Assembly (NCBI GenBank): GCA_012862495.1
Contig: BLSG01000257.1
Span: 115,577 to 159,101, forward strand
From: Thraustochytrium aureum
Taxonomy: Eukaryota
Direction of reading: 5' to 3'
Length of the DNA stretch: 43,525 nucleotides
The notes beneath the pieces were generated by a model, which did no database searches, was not told the DNA's origin, and was given only the letters and a program-made list of their open reading frames with translations. Shown here piece by piece: positions 20,792-43,525 of the stretch. The position numbers and the translations under genes were made by a program. Positions within the stretch are counted from its first letter, which is position 1. Every line of letters begins with the position of its first letter.

Positions 20792-23231
20792 TCAACCAAC
20801 ATGTGCTGCCCAGTTCGCTGCAGGAGGACGGACGCTCAGGTCAGGTGGCCTTCGCCGGGACAACCGTGGCCCCGGTAGCTCCGTTATGTCTGTATTGGCA
20901 CTCCCACTCACACCTGCGCTTAGTTCGTGCAACACGGCCTGGACCTTGGGCACAAAAACAAGCAAGAGGACCGAAATGTCGCACAGGAAGATCACCGCGC
21001 TGCGGAGGGAACATGTTGGAGGTCGGGTTGTCAGAGGCGATGATCAAGATAGGGATCGCCAAAGAGTAGACCTGCAGCGTGCTCACCATCGCGATCGAGA
21101 CGTACTTGCCCTCGGAAAACGCGGTGTGAACATTGCGCGTTACGAAGGCAAAGTAGTTGCCAATGAAGAGCAGGGTGAAGTGGAAGGCGCCGAGGAGGCC
21201 GAGGAATACCGAAGACTGCTCCGAGTAGCAAGAGCCGACGCTCATCAGCGGCTGGCCGAACGCGTCGCGGTCGACGACCACACGCCGGAACTTTAGCGGC
21301 GCAAAGATCTGCCAGAGCGCCAAGATCGCGATGTCGATAGCTCCGCAGACGCCCATCATCGTGAAAAGCTGTTTGTTGGTGATGGCGACCTTGCGCAGCG
21401 ACTTGTTGTTGAAAATCTTCTTGACGCGAAAGATCTTGGTGGCCAAGCTGCTGTAGCTGAGAACGAACCCCATCGAGAACAGCCACACCGACAGCGAGCA
21501 TCCAATGTTGGCTGGCTCGTAGTTGCCGTTCAAGGCAATGTCGTTGGCGTAGTTGTAAAGCGTCGGGTCGGCCCCCGCGTCGTCGATGGTAACAAACACG
21601 ATGGCCGAGCTGGAAATCATGGCGCCAAACGCAACAAGGCTGAGAAACTTGGTCTGGCTCGCGCGGACAACCGGCTTGGACCTGTTGGCCCACGTCCAGA
21701 AGAAAAAGCCCGACCCGATGCACAGGTTGATCCCAAAAAGCATGTAGCAGACCCCTTTGATTCCAGGGAGCCTCCTGTCGTGCACAGGGATATCGACATC
21801 GACCACTGGGTCTGTTGACTCACCATTGAACTTGATTGGTGTTGGAAACGTCCACGCTTTTTGGGTGTTGTTGAACGATCCGATTTCCAGCACTGTCACC
21901 GTATCCTCGGTCAAAAACACGTTCGACATGCGATAGTTGGCCGTGTCGGTGGCGCGGTTCCCAATCGCGTCAAAGCGAACAGTGCCGCTGAGGCCTTCGA
22001 AATTCAGCGACCCCTTGGCGTTCCAGAACTTTGTCCCGAATTCCTCAGGGAGCGGTCCGGTTGGCGCGATCTTGCAGGCCATGAGCCCGACGGTTGCGAA
22101 CGCGTCGAACAAGTATGCTCCAAAGTCCATGGCCATCGATTCCTCCGCTTTGGTCGTGTTGAAAAGGTCCTCGGGCGACTGCCAGTGAGCCGGGAGGTAG
22201 TGGTTGATCTCGTCGGCAGTAAACGTGGGCCAACTCGTTTCGAAAGCCTTCCAGAGCGGATTCTCCTTCGTCCCACCAGCCGCCGCAATCCGAAGCGATC
22301 CGCTCACAGCGTAGCGGACGTCTTTATCAAGGTCGTCAAAGTTTTGGTTGGACATGGATTCCGAGAACATCCATGACCGCCCCTTGCCGACGATGCCGAG
22401 CTTGTATCCATGACTGAGGATCGTGCCTACTCCGCCGGATCCAACAACGAGAAAAACGTTGACTTTAGTGGCGGCCATTGCCTCAACTTGCGTTTTGATG
22501 GGCTCTTCGGTCTCGTTGCCGCCCGAGACGAATGGGAACGAAAACACCTGGATGGCCTCGTTGGCGCAGTACTTGATGATCGACTCCTTGTACGACTCCC
22601 CGTAGTTGTTGTTCAAGTAGATCATCGCGGCGTACCTCCAGCCTCGCCCCTTCCAGAACTGGCAGATGCTGAAGGCCACCGCGTCGTCACTCGCGATCGT
22701 GCGCATGAATCGCGGGCTTTCTTTGTCGTTGTCCAGCCTGGCGCTCGTAGACCCATAACTGATCTGGGGAATGTCGTACACGCCACTGATAAGCGAGGTC
22801 GGGATCGATGCTCCGGACGTTGCCGGCCCAACGATCACGTGCGGAAACCGCGGCCCACTCTGAAGCATCTCCAGCATTGCGCGAATGGAAGCCACAGGGC
22901 TCAGACCAGAGTCGTAGATGGTCACGTTGATCGTCTTGTCGCATCCACCGAGCTGGCCAAACGCTGGGGCAAAGCGTGGGTTGCGGCTGTTGAACTCGTC
23001 GATTGCCAGTAGGCCAGGGGCAGTCATCGCGTGAAAGCCCCCGTCTGAGAACATGCATCGCGGGGAGGTTTTATTGTCTTGGTAGAACGTCGCCCAACCG
23101 TCGCATTCTGCCTCGCTCTTGATCCCCGCGTCGCTCATCAGGGCCAAGAACGAAACCTGGATGTCGACGGCAACACATGCCTGGGCCGCGAACGACAGGG
23201 CCAAAGCGGCGAGCGCTCCATGGGTGCGCAT
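20792..23231 (-). CDS. Class C GPCR, GABA-B/metabotropic-like (Venus flytrap ANF-receptor domain + 7TM_3)
   Basis: Signal peptide (MRTHGALAALALSFAAQACVA), then IVGPATSGAS...IPQISYGSTSARLDNDKESPRFMRTIASD. 7TM motifs include KPVVRASQTKFL, KIFRVKKIF and AFSEGKYVSIAM. An extra G at 21007-21009 shifts TM7 into ORF 20792..20995. Confidence 0.9.
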
Positions 23232-24715
23232 CGCTGCGTTCCTTGTTGTAGAACCAAACGAAACGTCCTTCGGCAGACTGGAGGAGATCGCGGGCAGACC
23301 CTTTTTTTGTGTCCTGTTCGATTGTCTCAAGCCAGATTCGGTTCGTCCGTGGTTTGGGGTCTGTTCCCTGAGCTTGCGACAGAATGTTCAGACTCCGACG
23401 GTCACAAGCCCCAGCTTAGCCCTTGCGATAAACAAGAGTAGCAGAGCAGGTTTTCGACTTAGGCGCAAAAACAAGTTCAACGACTTGCCAGCGGTCGCAA
23501 ATTCGCAAACAAAATTTCAAACATCACAATCAACGGCCCGCCTCTTGAAGGCTATGATGAACCATGATGCCGGGTCACACGATGACATTCGCTTGCCCAG
23601 CCTCGGCCGTCGTTCTTCACAGCGCGGTAGAACCGCTGCGAAATGAATGTGTCGTTCTTCACATCTGGGCAAAAGATTCCGTTGGGATGCTCACCGTCAG
23701 ACGTTTGCCTTGTCAAACGTTTGCCTTGAAGTCGCTCATCTAGCTACAGAAAGGCTGGCTTTGGTTTTCTCTGCTGTCTTGCTACATGGGACAAACCACC
23801 ATCATGCATTTTCGGTTGCCGTTGGCCCACCAGCGAAAAACAACCAACTCGCGCTCCCAGAAATGAAACGGGCTCCTGAACTTGGCCCTCCCGCCTCTCG
23901 GACACCGCCTAGCTACAGGTCCTGTCGCCCAAGACACCGCCTGGATGGCCCGCTCGGAAGGTCGGCCAAGCGCAGCTTGCGTATCTCTCACGCTCCTTCT
24001 AGTAATGAATGTACCGCCGTACTCGACACGTCGCGAGGCTGCATTCCTTCCTCATCGAGCGGGGCGGATTGTGACTCGGTCAGGAGCACGGCGTTGACAA
24101 GAGCGCCTCGCAGAAAAAGGCAGGTTACATGTAAACCCCTCCGAGTGACTTTCAACCCGCTGCAGCAGCGGACCGTGTTAGGTGTTAGGCGGTGCAACAA
24201 TTGGCCGTCGACCCTGACCATGTTTTTGGCGCATTCCCAACGGCTCCCGAGTAGGCTTCCTCTTCTGAAGGATTTATGTCGGTTGAAGGCCGACTTGCCG
24301 CCTCGGAGGAAGCCGGGCTGCCTTGTCCTCCTCGGAGGAGGCCTGGTTGCCTTGCCCGGCCAGCTCAGAGCAGCATGCGGGACTTGCACCGTCGTTACTC
24401 AGGCTCGATCGCCCGAACATGAAGGCTTGTCATGTGGACCTGCTGGGAGGGAAGTCGAGGGGTTGAAGTTTGTTGGCCGCGTCGCTCGCCAACGTCGTTG
24501 AGTTTTCATTAGCTGAACGGAAAACTGGGAACGGTGTTTGGTTTCAGTGGCTTTGGGTTCGTGTTGAGTTGGGTACGTTTGCGACCCTTGTCGTGCGGCA
24601 CTTTGGAGGTGGCAAAGCACAACGCAACGCCAACGAAAGCGACCGCCATTCAAAAGTAAAGCAACGCTCTGCCTCGCAACCGGGCTTGCGACTGGCCGCC
24701 AGCATCACCAGAGCT

Positions 24716-26515: not shown

Positions 26516-27949
26516 TCAGAGGACCGGGTACGAGGCGGAGAGCAGGATCCCGCACTCGCCCCCGCGCACCTCCTTGCCGCGCTGCAGCAGGATGTAGCCG
26601 TTCATGCCGAACGACGGGCCCCACGAGTTCTTGACCTTCCAGTACTTGACCCCGTCCAGCGTGCCGTACCCGACAACGAGCACGCCGTGGTCAAGGCGGG
26701 CACCGCAGCCCGCGGTGAGCACGCCGCGCTTGTAGAACTGGAAGGCGAGCTGGTCGGCCTCGATGGCGACGGCGACGGGGCGCTTGGCAACAGCGGCCTC
26801 CAGCGCCTCCTCCGTGTGCTCGACGTCGACGATCTCCTTGGGGGCGCTGCCCTCGATCTTGCTGCACTTTTGGCAGGCCGCCTGGCGCCCGGTGCCGGAA
26901 ATGTACGGGTAGTCTTCCTCCGTGCAGAGGCCGCCGGCCTTTTGAATAAAGCGGTCCGCGTTGTCCATGAGGCCGCCGTTGCAGCCCTGGTCGACGTGGT
27001 CGCACGAAACGAGCTCCTGCTCGCTGAAGGAAACGAGCTTGCCCGTCTTGAGAAAATAGGCGCCCTCGAGCGCGCCGGTGGTGCTGAAGGCCCAGCACGA
27101 GCCGCAGCTGCCCTGGTTCTTGACCTCTGTCACGGCGCCCTTGGTGGTCCAGTCAATCTCGTCCGGGATGTCGGTCAGGCCCAGCGTCTGGACGTCTAGC
27201 GAGTAAAAGGTGTGGTTGCGCTTGCGGGCGACGGCCGAGTTGGCGCCGCCGGAGAAGCCGAACCTCTGCTGGGCAAACTCCTCCGGGGCGAGGTGAGCGA
27301 ACTCGTTGATGGTAAGCCAGTACGAGTTGTCCTGCTTGGCGTTGTGCGTGGCGACAGCCTGCAGGTTGTCGGCGAAGGCCTTGATGCGGTCAACCGTCTC
27401 GGCCGGCGAAAACTCGAGGCCGTACTCGCGAACGTATTGGTCAAACATGAACTCGAGCTCGTGCGCCGAGAGGCTTAGACGACCGGCAGAGACGCGGAGC
27501 TCGTGGTTGTTGGCCTCCTTGGAAACGCTCACGCCCTCGGCGTGGACGCAGCTCAGGAGGGCGCCGTTGTGGTCGTTGACGATGATCTTGAGCGTGGTCT
27601 GGAAGCCCGCCGGAACGTGCTCGGGCACGGTCAGGTGAAACCGGCTCTTGCTCTCGTGCTTGGCCTGCACGTGGCAGTCGGTCACGGCGCACAGCTCGAA
27701 CGTGTCCGAGGCCACCTTGACACCCTCCACGTCCAGCTCGACTCGGACCATGCCCTTGCCGACATACTTGTTTGGCACTTGGGTGACTTCGACCGCGATC
27801 CGCTCGCCGGCGATGACCACCTCGGGAAGCTCGATGTCCTTGATTCCAAAGTCGTTCAGCGAGTCGCTGCAGACCTCCACGGCAAAGCCTTGCGCCGAGC
27901 CGACCAGGGCGGCGGCCGCGGCTGCCACGCCAAACAGGGACTTGACCAT
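26516..27949 (-). CDS. Cathepsin L-like papain (C1A) cysteine protease with signal peptide, ML/NPC2-like domain and I29 propeptide
   Basis: Catalytic motifs QGSCGSCWAFS, LDHGVLVVGYG and YWKVKNSWG; ERFNIN-like propeptide with INEFAHL. The N-terminal ~130 aa is a Cys-containing beta-rich ML-like domain (EVCSD...FELCAVTDCHV...LLSCV). Confidence 0.92.
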   Translation of the reverse strand: MVKSLFGVAAAAAALVGSAQGFAVEVCSDSLNDFGIKDIELPEVVIAGERIAVEVTQVPNKYVGKGMVRVELDVEGVKVASDTFELCAVTDCHVQAKHESKSRFHLTVPEHVPAGFQTTLKIIVNDHNGALLSCVHAEGVSVSKEANNHELRVSAGRLSLSAHELEFMFDQYVREYGLEFSPAETVDRIKAFADNLQAVATHNAKQDNSYWLTINEFAHLAPEEFAQQRFGFSGGANSAVARKRNHTFYSLDVQTLGLTDIPDEIDWTTKGAVTEVKNQGSCGSCWAFSTTGALEGAYFLKTGKLVSFSEQELVSCDHVDQGCNGGLMDNADRFIQKAGGLCTEEDYPYISGTGRQAACQKCSKIEGSAPKEIVDVEHTEEALEAAVAKRPVAVAIEADQLAFQFYKRGVLTAGCGARLDHGVLVVGYGTLDGVKYWKVKNSWGPSFGMNGYILLQRGKEVRGGECGILLSASYPVL

Positions 27950-33405: not shown

Positions 33406-33729
33406 CTACGAGACGATGCAGCAACCACCACCACCTTGTGGGCCGCCGTCTGCCGGCGCAACCTTGTTGCCCTTTCCAGCTGGGGCATCGAATTCTCCAA
33501 CGTAATAGTCTTGCATGAGGTCGTTCGCGGTTTCACTATGCTTGACCTTCTTGAACTGCTTCGTTGCGTCTTTGCCGCCCATCGCAGTCAGTAGTCCAGC
33601 ACCCCCTGGATGGTCTTCGAGGTATTCCGTGATGTTGTACACTTTGCCGTCGATGGCAATCCAGCAGTCCGTCTCCGTGTTGTGCGCAGCCAGCGCTTCT
33701 GGTGTGATTTTCTCACCCTCGCCAGCCAT
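33406..33729 (-). CDS. Cytochrome b5 with C-terminal CaaX box (CCIVS), no TM anchor
   Basis: HNTETDCWIAIDGKVYNITEYLEDHPGG...GGKDATKQFKKVKHS contains both heme His ligands. The protein ends GGGGCCIVS*. Confidence 0.93.
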   Translation of the reverse strand: MAGEGEKITPEALAAHNTETDCWIAIDGKVYNITEYLEDHPGGAGLLTAMGGKDATKQFKKVKHSETANDLMQDYYVGEFDAPAGKGNKVAPADGGPQGGGGCCIVS

Positions 33730-37406: not shown

Positions 37407-38140
37407 TTACGCCGCGATCTGCTCAAGGGCGCCTTGGCGAATCAGGTGCTCAACGTCAGCGCGCCGCAAAAAGTGTGTCGTGTTGCGTTCCAAACGAACC
37501 GGCCCGCTCTCTGTCAGGATTTCTCCGCAGTCCTGTAGGACGCGCACTTCGATGAAAAGCTTTTTCGGCGGTTGTTGGTCCTGCGGCGATCGCGCACGTT
37601 AGAAGGTGCCTCTCGCCGTGGCACTCCGTTTCCCCGTTTCAAACGTACCGCTGTGAGGTCCAAGTCCATCGACCTCATGTAGGCGCCTAGAATGCCGTCA
37701 TAGCCCTCAAAGTACTGCCGCTCGTCTGCGCTGAGCTTGCGGTCGAACTCTGCTGGAGGCGCGCTGCCAGCTTGCCAGCGCAGCTCCACGAGCTTTTCGG
37801 TGCGGTACTGCAGATAGGCGAGAAGACACCGCTTGTTTCGGATTGCGCTCGTGTGGAACACCATAAGTGGGCAGGCCACCGCGGGGTCAGAGGGCTCCCC
37901 TTGGGTTGCGACAGCATCGCGGATTTGTTTGTACAGTGCGTTGACTTCCTCAATGATCTGTCGAACCAAATCATCCTGCACAACCCCCAGCGAGCGTCAG
38001 CGGACCACGTCGCTGCCTCGCTACGGCAGGCGCGCCAAGTGTCGCGCCACACTTACATTGAAAGCTGGAAGCCATTCGCTGCGCTTGAGCTCCTGGAGAA
38101 GCTCCTTGGCGCGTTGGCCAAAAGGCAACGTGGACGTCAT
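37407..38140 (-). CDS. PSF1: GINS complex subunit Psf1 (three exons)
   Basis: Exons 38140-38057, 37975-37649 and 37580-37407 with canonical phase-0 introns. Motifs LPAFN-DDLVRQIIEE, RNKRCLLAY, LRW, PPKKLFIEVRVLQDCGEI and HLIRQGALE. Confidence 0.95.
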
Positions 38141-40358
38141 CTCGGCCTCCACCGACACCCAATCCGAGGAAGCTGCGAGCACGGTTCGCAAGCTAAGCTT
38201 GCTTCAACGCAGGTACGCTGCCGTCCCCGCTCGTCGCGCAGCGGCGCACAGCTCCTCCGCGGCGCGCCCAGCTGAGGAGTCTGTTGCGTCAGCCTCAAAC
38301 TTCATCGAGTGCCCTGACCAATTCAAAAACCTAAAACCTAACTCAAAGTGAACAAACCTATCCCAACGGATTTGTTCCGTTTGGCATGCTGCTCGACGGT
38401 ACTCTCTACTAGAGTAGAGTGGTACGTATCAAGTAAGTGACGTCCACCGACGGCGCCAAGGTCGGCGATGAGGTCTTGCCTTATTCCAATGGGCGCTTGG
38501 AAAGGCCGACTCTCTCTTCTCAGAAATGACCAGCTTCTCGCAGCCCGATCCTGTCACGGGTCGATGTCTTGTGCGTTGTGTATGCCCGAGACTTTGAGCC
38601 CTCGAGCTTCCCGGCTTTAAGCTCTGAGACAGCCCTGCAACCGACTCCTTACTACACCGCGAAGAAGAGCTGGATCTGCGCAGAAAAACAGAAAACTGTC
38701 AGCCCCGTCCAAATGTACACCGCGCTCTACTAGCTAGCTAAAAGCAGCAACAGCTGTTGTACAACTGGCGTTTTGGGGGGTTTCCCGAAAGAGCCTCGAG
38801 GTTTAGCGCCTTGCTGAGCGCCACCAGGCTTTGAGCGTTGAAGCGTTTTACTGTTAAGGCCGACGTGGCATGTTGTAGAGTAACGACTCTGCGGACGGGA
38901 CGACCCCAGTCGATTGCCGATGCCTAACCTTAGCTTTGCTCCGCTGAGTGAGTGAGTCCACGATCGGGGCAATCTGGAAGTGCGCTCAAGCAAGCCTGGT
39001 TTCATTGTGACGAGCTCCGGCAATTGCTTCTTGCTTTGCTTGACCATCTTTGGTTGTCCGTTCGCGTGGCTGACGAAGATCGTCCGAAAACTGACCAACT
39101 CGCTCTGAAAAGAATCGCCCCAAGCCATCTCCACGCCACGAAAACCAATCAACCGAGCTACCGAACCCTGCCAGTGTGCTCGACGTGGGTCTTCCTTTTT
39201 CTCGTTCTTTCCTTTTCCTCTTTCTCTAGTCATCGGTTGCCAACCGACCCAACCGACCGAGTCAGTTTCACTGTGAAATAACAGAGGGCACCTGGCCGGA
39301 ATAGGCACAGCGAGGGTTTCTGCGACTCGTCGCCGTGAGGCGGTCTAGCTAGCTAGGCGTCTCACTTCGACTTTTTTTGAGGTGCATGGTTGTTATCGGC
39401 GGACTTTACCGTTGGACGCTCAGGTACGAGAAAATTTTGCATTGTGTGTTGACGTGTTGGGCGAGCCGCGCCAAACTGCGATGGCTCGTTCAGAAGTGAG
39501 TACGTTTTCCTTGCGAGAAAGCAGATGCCAGTCCACACAACCTGATTTGAAGTGCATGCCTCGGCTTCGAAACCTTCCCTCCGATGAATGTAAGCCCAAG
39601 CTCCAAACCCCTCTCAAAACGGATATATCTACTCTACCGATTGGCTGTGCCACGCAGAGCAATGGTTGACCGGCCAAAGGGGCGGCAGGCTTCTTCTTCG
39701 CATCGAACGTGGTGTTTGATANNNNNNNNNNNNNNNNNNNNNNNNNNNNNNNNNNNNNNNNNNNNNNNNNNNNNNNNNNNNNNNNNNNNNNNNNNNNNNN
39801 NNNNNNNNNNNNNNNNNNNNNNNNNNNNNNNNNNNNNNNNNNNNNNNNNNNNNNNNNNNNNNNNNNNNNNNNNNNNNNNNNNNNNNNNNNNNNNNNNNNN
39901 NNNNNNNNNNNNNNNNNNNNNNNNNNNNNNNNNNNNNNNNNNNNNNNNNNNNNNNNNNNNNNNNNNNNNNNNNNNNNNNNNNNNNNNNNNNNNNNNNNNN
40001 NNNNNNNNNNNNNNNNNNNNNNNNNNNNNNNNNNNNNNNNNNNNNNNNNNNNNNNNNNNNNNNNNNNNNNNNNNNNNNNNNNNNNNNNNNNNNNNNNNNN
40101 NNNNNNNNNNNNNNNNNNNNNNNNNNNNNNNNNNNNNNNNNNNNNNNNNNNNNNNNNNNNNNNNNNNNNNNNNNNNNNNNNNNNNNNNNNNNNNNNNNNN
40201 NNNNNNNNNNNNNNNNNNNNNNNNNNNNNNNNNNNNNNNNNNNNNNNNNNNNNNNNNNNNNNNNNNNNNNNNNNNNNNNNNNNNNNNNNNNNNNNNNNNN
40301 NNNNNNNNNNNNNNNNNNNNNNNNNNNNNNNNNNNNNNNNNNNNNNNNNNNNNNNNNN

Positions 40359-43300
40359 CTCGATCGCGTGCTACGAGGACTTCTCTTGCAGCCCGAGGCC
40401 GATGCCGACGTCTCCATCGCGTATGACCTCCGCAACCACGCCATCCTCCGAGACCTCGCCGCGTACGACATTCAGCGTGGGCGTGACCGTGGGCTTGCCT
40501 CTTTCAACGACGTTCGCGAACAGCTTAACATGACACGCTTCACCTCATGGAGCGACCTCACGCCTGAAGTTGAGGTCCAGGAACTGCTGGCATCGGTCTA
40601 CGCCAGCGTGGACGAGCTGGACGCGTACGTAGGCGGTTTGGCCGAGCGCCCTGTGCTCAGTGGAATCGTGCCGCCCACCTTCAACCGACTTATCGAGCTG
40701 CAGTTCGATCGCCTCCGTGCCGCGGATAGGTTCCACTACGAGAATCCGGGCATTCTCGACGCCGAGACGCTTGCCGTCGTGGAGAACCGGTCGCTTTCTG
40801 ACATGGTGCTTGACCACACGGGGATCGAAACGATTGCAGAGGACATGTTCCTCCTTCAAGACATTCTCTCCAGAAGCGAGTGCGACGATACCGAGGTCCA
40901 GCCTGCCAGCACGTTTTCGCCCCTCACCGGGTACACGTTCGCCTGGAATCTCAACATGGAAAGCCGCACCATCAACATCCAGATAAGCGTCCCAACCACA
41001 GAGTACGGATGGGTCGCCATCGGATTCAACACGACAATGATGATTGGCGCCGACGTGGTGATGGGATACATCGACGAAGCCGGCTCCACCCTTGTTGTGC
41101 AAGACATGAAGATCACAGAGGAGGACCAAGTTCCAGTCAGCGACAGCAGCCTCGGAGCTGCGTCAAACATCGAGAGCGGTTTCACTGGCGGCTATGAAGG
41201 CGGCGTGCTGTGGGTAAACTTTACGCGCAAGTTTGATACTGGCGACTCTGCTGGCGATGCGGCTCTCCCGATCCCAGAGTCGATCGAGGACCTCGCCGAA
41301 CTCAAGGTGAACTTTATCTTTGCGTATGGGACGAAACTGAACGGGTACCATGGGCGCTCTAGACGAGCCGCCGTGGCGGTCGACCTGATCGGCGGCAGAG
41401 CTACCGACTCAGGCGGGAGCGGTTACAACGCGACGGTGCTCTACGGTGTGCACGGCATTGTCATGGTGCTCATGTGGATGGTCTTCATCCCGCTCAGCAC
41501 CTTCGTGGCGCACTTTTTCAGAACGTGGAAGTACGCCATGGAATTGCACCAGACCTTGGCTCAGGCTGGATCGATCGGGATTATCTCGTTCGCCGCCAGC
41601 GCGCTGGCGGCGAACGATCGCATCTTTGACAGCCCGCATGCACTCTTGGGGCTTCTTGTGGTCGTGTGGTTGGTGTTTCAGATCTGGCTAGGGTGGTACC
41701 TCCGCCTCGGGTTGCAGAACAGCTCGGACTTGGACCGAATCATGCTCTTCAAGAAGACGCACAGGCGCAGCGGGTGGGCGCTGCTCTTGCTCGCGATCGC
41801 GAACTGCTACTTGGGCGTGAACAAGCTCTTTGACGAAGACAACCTTGCGCCGCGGGCCATCTACTTTTCCTATGTTGGGCTCATGGCGGGCACCTTCGCG
41901 GTGCTCGATCATCAGCGCCGCAGACGAAAGACAAGGCGCGTCTCCAGCGACGAAAGACGCGAGCGGCCAAGCTTGGCGCCTCTGGAACTGGTAGTCGTGT
42001 GGCTGCTGCTGGCTCGCGCAGGGTAAGCAGCATACTTGACAGCACGGAGCTTGACGCCGACAAAGAGATCATGCTTCCCGGTTGGACGTGGAAAGAGTTC
42101 AACGAGAAGGTTTCAAGTGGCCAAATGCTCTTGGTGATTCAGGGCCAGGTCATGGACGTGCGAAACTACGCCATCAAGCACCCTGCCGGAGCCAAAATCA
42201 TCGAGAGCTTTGTCGGGACTGACGCCACTGCGGCGTTTCTTGGAAGGGACACGGACGCAAAGGCCAAGCACGCTCACTCCATTGACGCTCGCGATCTGCT
42301 CCGGACGATGGTGAAAGCGAAAATCCTTGACTACACGGTGTCCATGACAAAGCTCAACACCACGGATATCAACAGCAAGACTGAAAAGGTGCTGGAGCAC
42401 ATTACCCACCGATTCGTCAGCCTCCCTGTTGTGAGTACACGAGAGCTGAACAATGCCGCGGACAAGGTCTTTGAGATCCGCGTCGCGACCGACCCGACCA
42501 CGGTCGAAAAGTGGATCAAGCGCACGAGCGGAGGAGTTCTCGGAGATGCCGGGCGGCGCGAGCTTCAGACGATCGCCTCGCTCAAGTTTGGCCAGCACGT
42601 CAAGCTTTTGCACGTTATTGACGGCGTCCCAGTCACGCGGCTCTACACGCCGACCGATACAGTGTTTGACGGGTTCATCAACTTTGTGATCAAGACGTAC
42701 GAGAAGGGCGAGATGACGCCGGCGCTTCGCAAGCTGTACCTCGGCCAGTCGCTCCGCATCCACGGCCCATTTGGGCCGGATCTGTACTGCAAGCACGGCA
42801 CTTTGCCGGAGGGCTGCTGGGATAATGTCATCTTCTTCGCTGGCGGGTCTGGCTTGACGCCGGCGCTCGCCACAATCGAGCATCATCTGCGCCACGCGGG
42901 TGGGAAGACCAAGATCTGGCTCTTCTTCAGCAACACGGAGGAAGCCGACTTTTACTACATGGACGAGCTACGCGACCTGGAGGCGCGCGCTGCAGGCGCG
43001 CTCAAGATCACATACTGCGTCACCAAGCCGAAGGGGGTGCCCATCCCGACCGCGAAGGACATCAAGTACGAAACAGGTTACCTGGACGCGGCGATGTTTC
43101 AGCGCCTAGGCTGTCCGAAGCCGCCAGCCCTGCCTCCTGGTGGCGTCCACCGCACGAGCTCGGTAATGTCTGATGAGAGCTCGACCTCGAAGCCTTCTGC
43201 TGGTTCTGCTCCGACTTCTGCGCATGATACCGATGAGGCCGCTGGGGCAGAGCCCTGCGATCCGACTGCAGCAGAGCCCCGCGAGCCGACGATGGCACTC

Positions 43301-43387
43301 ATCGCAAGCGGGCCCCTTTCCTTTTGCCGAGCCTGCGACGCCGTCACATCCAAGCTTGGCTACCCGAGGGTCCGCAAGCTCTGCTGA
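40359..43387 (+). CDS. Multidomain oxidoreductase: animal-type heme peroxidase (C-terminal part) - DOMON - cytochrome b561 - cytochrome b5 - FAD/NAD(P)H cytochrome b5 reductase; 5' end in gap
   Basis: Peroxidase: DIQRGRDRGLASFN, DAYVGGLAE, QFDRLRAADRFHYEN. DOMON: GWVAIGFNTTMMIGADVVMG...GYHG. b561: four His (VHGIVM, ELHQT, SPHALLG, KTHRRSG). b5: HPAG...HAHS. Reductase: RLYTP, HGPFG, AGGSGLTP, SGP. ORFs 40368..42026 and 41999..43387 join if one A is missing at 41953-41955. Confidence 0.85.
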
Positions 43388-43525
43388 GCGCGTAAATTAC
43401 CGTTTCAATCCTTCTTGTCAACAACACAACAACAAAAGAAAAGAAAAGAACGTTTTCTGCATCGCAGAATCGCAGATTCTTTGCGCGAAGCCGTCGACAT
43501 GACCGCAGCCGCAGCGCGACGTGCG

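Follow-up and report, generated by a model that had tools for sequence, protein, structure and literature searches.

Two long forward-strand reading frames (40359-42026 and 41834-43387) in a 43,525-nucleotide stretch of Thraustochytrium aureum DNA, hereafter the window, were found to be a single gene that encodes a real six-domain fusion of a haem peroxidase, a DOMON domain, a cytochrome b561, a cytochrome b5 and an FAD- and NAD(P)H-binding reductase. We propose that its product is a single-chain, NAD(P)H-fed outward reductase whose electrons most likely reduce H2O2 to water at the peroxidase head, a function to which we give an even chance. The family to which the protein belongs is real and widespread.

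Two frames, one gene

A Pfam scan of both frames placed all six domains above the curated cut-offs and in the order that had been proposed from the sequence alone (Table 1). Specifically, the first frame yielded An_peroxidase (profile positions 355-530 of 530, 138 bits), DOMON (64.3 bits) and Cytochrom_B561 (30.6 bits, cut-off 23), and the second frame yielded Cyt-b5 (44.5 bits), FAD_binding_6 (47.2 bits) and NAD_binding_1 (45.1 bits). The scan of the window frames gave no Ferric_reduct match at E 0.1, in line with the claim that the membrane domain is a cytochrome b561 and the protein is built independently of NOX. No EF-hand families were found in Pfam scans of the window frames or of four relatives.

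Table 1. Features of the fusion gene and of its assembly in the window
Feature	Position	Strand	Basis and details
Assembly gap (637 N)	39722..40358	.	takes in the missing N-terminal peroxidase part with the distal His/Arg and proximal His positions
Peroxidase-cyclooxygenase-superfamily haem peroxidase, C-terminal third	40359..40850	+	PF03098, 5e-40
DOMON domain	40905..41390	+	PF03351; structure matches; conserved haem ligands Met 41040 and His 41349
Five-helix cytochrome b561	41430..41909	+	PF03188; His 41451, 41547, 41637 and 41760 on helices 1-4
Missing base	41930..41931	+	extra base in runs X1, X2 and X4; the shift creates the false stop 42024-42026
Cytochrome b5, predicted cytosolic	42071..42330	+	PF00173; His ligands 42179 and 42275
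FNR-type FAD-binding domain	42570..42775	+	PF00970; RxYTP motif 42638
NAD(P)H-binding domain	42813..43387	+	PF00175; GGxGxxP 42842, Thr-Lys at the coenzyme-discriminating position 43022, SGP 43307, low-complexity insert, stop 43385-43387

The apparent stop at 42026, across which the sequence-only reading had joined the two frames into one polypeptide, proved to be an assembly error and not the end of a gene. Contigs from three public runs of three different studies (X1 may be the source sample, X2 and X4 are from other studies) restored the frame by the same extra base: a contig of DNA run X1 (41773-42265, depth 6.3), a contig of DNA run X4 (41866-42015, depth 2.2) and two short contigs of run X2. 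Because run X2 skips two GT..AG introns of neighbouring genes, it is RNA, and the parts of the gene that it covers are thus transcribed. Its contig 41932-43392 crosses the TAA without gap or joint; together with the extra base, this continuity means that no intron is needed and that the TAA lies out of frame. A frame-restoring 20-base GT..AG intron at 42023-42042 was ruled out by the same jointless passage. Codon-position GC placed the frame switch between 41930 and 42070 and was uninformative within the linker. The whole gene was spanned by no single contig of the public runs, and the match of run X7 to the window was 218 bases only.

The assembly appears to be indel-prone, since the runs differed from the window by further small indels (at window positions 37602, 39353-39356, 39435, 41074 and 43438), and other frameshifts of the window may likewise be assembly errors. 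One of these indels is an in-frame three-base insertion within the DOMON domain in run X1. At the other end of the peroxidase domain, contigs of X1 and X4 extended from 40359 into the gap, and the 30 letters gained there read in frame and were peroxidase-like as in the relative P0004. No peroxidase similarity was found upstream of the gap (38301-39721), and a word-index search revealed no fragment covering it. As the missing peroxidase part needs about 1,050 bases against the 637 N of the gap, either the gap length is underestimated or the peroxidase head is truncated.

The neighbouring genes contain spliceosomal introns, as in a eukaryote host. Other genes of the window include a GINS/Psf1-like gene with two introns (37514-38140, minus strand; 37580-37647 spliced in runs X2 and X6), a small stand-alone cytochrome b5 gene roughly 6.6 kb upstream (33409-33729, minus strand), a papain-family protease with an N-terminal ML lipid-binding domain (26519-27949, minus strand) and an apparently intronless class C GPCR-like gene with ANF_receptor and 7tm_3 domains (20991-23384, minus strand). 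In the 5′ region of the fusion gene itself, there is a possible intron at 39497-39658 (plus strand), of which the GT donor is kept in X4 and the upstream ATG is not.

Haem wire, topology and electron donor

The candidate haem ligands (the DOMON Met/His, four b561 His and the b5 His pair) could all be located as codons and are conserved in the family. Among the 73 peroxidase-fused proteins listed, the DOMON Met was present in 72 and the DOMON His in 71, the four b561 His in 73, 72, 73 and 73, and the first b5 His in all; the second b5 His, which sits in a variable loop, was aligned in 96 of 132 rows. A model of the window DOMON-b561 part (pLDDT 88, pTM 0.76) contained five helices, as expected for the four-His bundle plus one further helix. 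The best structural matches of the modelled b561 were plant b561 (4o6y, Z 15.6, rmsd 2.8, 161 aligned) and Dcytb (5zlg, Z 15.4), with only Z 11.3 for NOX5, and the modelled DOMON matched DBH-DOMON and cellobiose dehydrogenase cytochrome domains (Z 12.5-14.3). Moreover, the b561 haem His are distributed one per helix, unlike the FRD pattern of two His on each of two helices.

The peroxidase and DOMON domains are predicted to lie outside the cytosol and the b5/reductase part inside, because the proteins combine a signal-like N-terminus (P0003, P0004 and 31 of the 47 complete members listed) with five helices, a basic stretch following helix 5 and glycosylation sequons that are commoner on the N-terminal side (36 of the 47 complete members listed). 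This prediction agrees with the claim that the two halves occupy opposite sides of the membrane, where the outer side would be either that of the plasma membrane or an organelle lumen. In a model of the 1,186-residue P0004, the domains were good (pLDDT 85.6) and pTM was 0.53.

The cytosolic ascorbate site of Dcytb is described as having basic residues at H2-7, H2-3 and H4-7 (PMC10691727). The window protein carries Trp, Met and Ile at these positions; across the 132 aligned rows, H2-3 is mostly hydrophobic (Arg in 4) and H4-7 is Arg in 16, and a basic residue at another position, H4-3, is kept in 114. Such poor conservation of the ascorbate-site residues would be expected if b5 is the donor.

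The best solved relatives of the FAD/NAD module are NADH-cytochrome b5 reductases, and the RxY(T/S)P, GGxGxxP and (C/S)GP motifs of this FNR type are all present. In such reductases, an acidic residue at the coenzyme-discriminating position selects NADH over NADPH. The Thr-Lys of the window protein, standing where yeast b5 reductase 7rom has Asp, therefore suggests a preference for NADPH. Across relatives, Ser, Lys or Thr predominate in this poorly aligned column, and 4 rows have Asp.

Spread of the family and exchange of its heads

Word-index searches revealed P0003, P0004 and P0005 (44-45% identical) as well as P0011, all of which have their domains in this order. When 1.84 billion representatives were scanned with a profile of the DOMON-to-NAD part, 262 matched at 1e-30, and the best 150 of these were analysed together with seven earlier matches using our own domain HMMs. 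All six domains occurred in order in one chain in 66 of these 157 proteins, 64 of them among the best 150 of 262, so that both halves are indeed joined in homologs. The peroxidase-DOMON-b561-b5 series was present in 73 of the 157, and b561-b5 without a PF03098-type peroxidase in 58, some of which are fragments. An ESM Atlas cluster of 179 members contained An_peroxidase in 100%, Cyt-b5 in 97% and DOMON in 88%; an Atlas search that excluded PF03098 clusters gave no usable match. Insensitive pattern scans returned only single-domain matches from metagenomes (3 of 271 stretches), only peroxidases from prokaryotic genomes (4 of 156 stretches) and nothing from viral contigs (0 of 83 stretches). A quick tree of 120 of the 132 core sequences grouped the window protein with P0003, P0004 and P0005 (SH-aLRT 100).

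Looking up 24 proteins yielded 13 clusters with organism names. Peroxidase-headed members came from fungi (Lobulomyces/Clydaea, Borealophlyctis, Sorochytrium, Allomyces and Acaulospora), the green alga Cymbomonas, the brown alga Discosporangium and Rigifila, the last as a Trinity transcript product. The named groups with the six-domain chain were thus chytrids, blastoclads, an arbuscular mycorrhizal fungus, a green alga, a brown alga and Rigifila, and another head or none was found in Gonapodya, Paulinella, Blepharisma, Globomyces and a bicosoecid.

On the same wire, P0145, P0126 and P0092 carry peroxidase heads of the PF00141 type. The P0145 head is closest to cytochrome c and ascorbate peroxidases and has kept the distal Arg/His and proximal His. 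Ceruloplasmin/hephaestin-like multicopper oxidase heads with copper motifs are found in P0135, P0034 and P0130 (Paulinella and unnamed sources). A small head domain of P0030 and P0017, without a match in the databases, has a His/Cys/His/Met pattern like that of a type 1 copper site. Since about 20 members among the matches listed have a signal peptide alone before the DOMON domain, the head is dispensable; headless members occur in ciliates and chytrids. On the tree, PF00141 heads required two changes and the oxidase head one. P0145 and P0126 fall within a clade (SH-aLRT 98) where the distal triad has been lost from the original heads, as if, judging from these sequences, a working peroxidase had replaced a dead one, although P0126 itself has no distal His.

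Some members depart further from this layout. P0034 contains a second DOMON-b561 at its N-terminus besides the oxidase head. In P0013 (4632 aa), 20 DOMON repeats, all with the Met/His haem ligands, precede the b561-b5-reductase part and could form a long extracellular haem chain; 16 of the repeats are near-identical, and their count may be inflated by assembly. In the headless P0124, P0134 and P0107, the cytosolic reductase region is interrupted by an SH3 domain, a feature that recalls the SH3-based regulation of NOX.

Catalytic residues of the peroxidase head

By sequence, mammalian peroxidases and DUOX1 were more distant from the head than its closest solved relatives, the cyanobacterial peroxidase 8s6c and Dictyostelium DdPoxA; by fold, DdPoxA ranked first. 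The window protein has Asp at the proximal Asn position (40467) and keeps the proximal Arg (40476); its catalytic Gln, His, Arg and proximal His fall within the gap and are unseen. In P0003 and P0004, the nearest complete relatives, the distal Gln, His and Arg and the proximal His are all kept. All four residues occur in 17 of the 47 complete heads listed, scattered over the tree, and 15 have lost the distal Gln, His and Arg while keeping the proximal His, which is present in 41 and absent from 6. Intact and lost distal residues are separated by three changes on the tree. Because catalytic residues are lost in so many heads, many members cannot be peroxidases.

At the ester-bond positions, Asp was found in at most 1 and Glu in 7 of the 47 complete heads listed; P0003 and P0004 have Cys and Val there, and the window positions lie within the gap. 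In superfamily peroxidases, fewer ester bonds are reported to go with a lower Fe3+/Fe2+ potential (-0.276 V with one bond), and halide-oxidising power tracks these bonds (PMC5787809). The characterised enzymes of the superfamily mostly oxidise halides or small molecules and not a protein partner (PMC4420034).

Proposed function and alternatives

In the mechanism that we propose, electrons would pass from NAD(P)H to FAD, the b5 haem, the inner and outer b561 haems and the DOMON haem, and in a last step from there to Compound I/II of the peroxidase. The b5/reductase tail would replace ascorbate as the electron donor, and the flow would be outward because of the order of the parts and the analogy with HYP1, a CYBDOM protein reported to move electrons outward and to reduce Fe(III) chelates and Cu(II) (PMC10784544). 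Chelates of Fe3+ or Cu2+ may be further acceptors for the DOMON haem; the head would then clear the peroxide that could otherwise feed Fenton reactions. The potential of Compound I/II is about +1 V and that of O2/superoxide about -0.16 V, with NOX haems near -0.25 V. Given reported potentials of about -20 to +190 mV for eukaryotic b561 haems (bioRxiv 2021.12.23.473985; PMC12723747), Compound I/II or Fe3+ should be easy for the wire to reduce, and O2 or a resting ferric head hard.

The near-invariant wire ligands, the unrelated acceptor heads on one wire and the intact residues of P0003 and P0004 count for peroxide reduction at the head; the degeneracy of about half of the heads and the many headless members count against it. 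Taken together, the acceptor-type heads and the b561 potentials favour the removal of peroxide over metal reduction or the production of reactive oxygen species (ROS), and different members may do different jobs. Of the electron wire as originally read, the path from NAD(P)H via FAD, b5 and b561 to DOMON was supported, with its ligands conserved, and a ROS output found less support.

Ferric reduction is a strong alternative function. The protein might be a ferric or cupric reductase for metal uptake, namely a CYBDOM with its own NAD(P)H supply and an accessory head that takes no electrons from the wire; we consider this unlikely, yet a serious contender. It would fit the activity of CYBDOMs such as HYP1, the headless members of ciliates and chytrids and the common degeneration of heads, and the ceruloplasmin-like heads would suggest a reductase-ferroxidase pair. 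However, it leaves unexplained why peroxidases of unrelated kinds were taken up on at least two further occasions and why the catalytic set survived in 17 of 47 heads across the tree, and no iron transporter was recognised among the neighbours examined, which are the annotated part of the window genes.

A DUOX-like or NOX-plus-peroxidase-like protein, in which the wire makes superoxide or H2O2 directly or via Fe2+/quinone cycling and the head uses these ROS to oxidise halides or cross-link extracellular matrix, seems improbable to us. The overall layout is that of DUOX, DdPoxA, one of the closest solved relatives of the head, oxidises iodide and thiocyanate with NOX-derived H2O2, NQR-AIR12 modulates apoplastic ROS, and O2 could bind to those heads that combine a haem ligand with a hydrophobic distal pocket. 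Moreover, the bacterial b561 CybB is reported to make superoxide in reverse (bioRxiv 2021.12.23.473985), which also counts against peroxide removal. On the other hand, the potentials known for eukaryotic b561 haems are too high for them to reduce O2 directly, the ester bonds tied to halide oxidation are mostly absent from the family, and cytochrome c peroxidase-like and copper-oxidase heads are scavengers. The DUOX analogy drawn from the sequence alone therefore holds for the layout and is less well supported for a role as ROS generator, which the head swaps, the b561 potentials and the proximal His retained by the nearest relatives disfavour. Finally, the fusion could be an artefact in which two genes, or a decayed gene, are joined across a real stop, as might be suspected from the frame change and stop in the window, the gap too short for the missing peroxidase part and the want of one contig for the whole gene. 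With the frame restored by three runs and six domains in one chain in 64 of the best 150 of 262 matches, including the Rigifila transcript product, this is very hard to believe.

Beyond the reduction of H2O2 by the peroxidase-headed members, we tentatively suggest, with somewhat less than even confidence, that the proteins make up an unrecognised family of NAD(P)H oxidoreductases, ancient in eukaryotes and independent of NOX, FRE and STEAP, in which a single trans-membrane chain carries a fixed five-haem wire and takes plug-in terminal enzymes. If so, a peroxidase head would make a surface NAD(P)H peroxidase with protein-to-protein electron transfer into a peroxidase-cyclooxygenase haem, a copper-oxidase head would make a water-forming surface oxidase, and up to 20 DOMON haems would make a eukaryotic extracellular nanowire. 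Because heads have been swapped naturally on one wire, the question of the acceptor can be tested directly; the wire could also be used as a genetically encoded conduit that leads electrons from NAD(P)H to the surface.

Comparison with known systems

No description of the six-domain architecture was found in the full-text literature (subscription papers, supplements and architecture databases aside), and the family is apparently undescribed. Related fusions may be listed in the work of Iyer et al. from 2007 on DOMON architectures. Animal-type peroxidases in Mucoromycota are treated in PMC10629195, the available text of which does not mention this architecture.

By its domains, the window protein is an extended CYBDOM. 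With CYBDOMs (Arabidopsis HYP1/CRR, animal FRRS1/SDR2 and Drosophila CG8399) its family shares the signal peptide, the Met/His DOMON, outward flow and a five-helix b561 with four His, one per core helix, as these are described in PMC10784544 and PMC10691727; it differs in that CYBDOMs use cytosolic ascorbate, whereas the window family has a fused b5/b5-reductase tail and an enzyme head. DUOX (family 7 of the peroxidase superfamily) likewise combines, in one chain, a PF03098 domain outside (predicted for the window protein), a dihaem membrane domain and cytosolic FAD/NAD(P)H domains. However, the window family has a b561 in place of the NOX domain, no EF-hands and the additional DOMON and b5 haems, and 41 of the 47 heads listed keep the proximal His, which DUOX peroxidase domains lack (PMC4420034).

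FRE/FRO proteins are also NAD(P)H-FAD-dihaem outward reductases, and Naegleria and oomycetes have DOMON-FRE fusions with an extracellular DOMON (PMC3591440); they differ by an FRD domain with His pairs on TM3 and TM5 and by having neither b5 nor peroxidase head. The likeness to the bacterial quinol peroxidase YhjA and to cytochrome c peroxidases is functional only: in these, too, a haem chain feeds a peroxidase that reduces H2O2 outside the cytoplasm, but with c-type haems, a quinol donor and an unrelated fold (PMC10301912). Cellobiose dehydrogenase likewise uses a DOMON haem as inter-domain relay. In nitrate reductase, the modules stand in the order b5-FAD-NAD(P)H. This order is shared by the window family, whose reductase part was matched by solved structures; NCB5OR likewise has b5 and b5-reductase modules. 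Unlike the window family, these three enzymes are soluble and have no membrane wire.

The family spans fungi, green and brown algae, bicosoecids, ciliates, Rhizaria and Rigifila, where its members are annotated only as 'hypothetical' or 'Peroxidase mlt-7', and in microbial eukaryotes, arbuscular mycorrhizal fungi among them, it is a concrete candidate for removing peroxide at the surface, reducing iron or putting out ROS. Eukaryotes are held to export electrons across membranes by the NADPH-fed NOX/FRE/STEAP proteins and by the ascorbate-fed cytochromes b561, next to which this family would be a third design.
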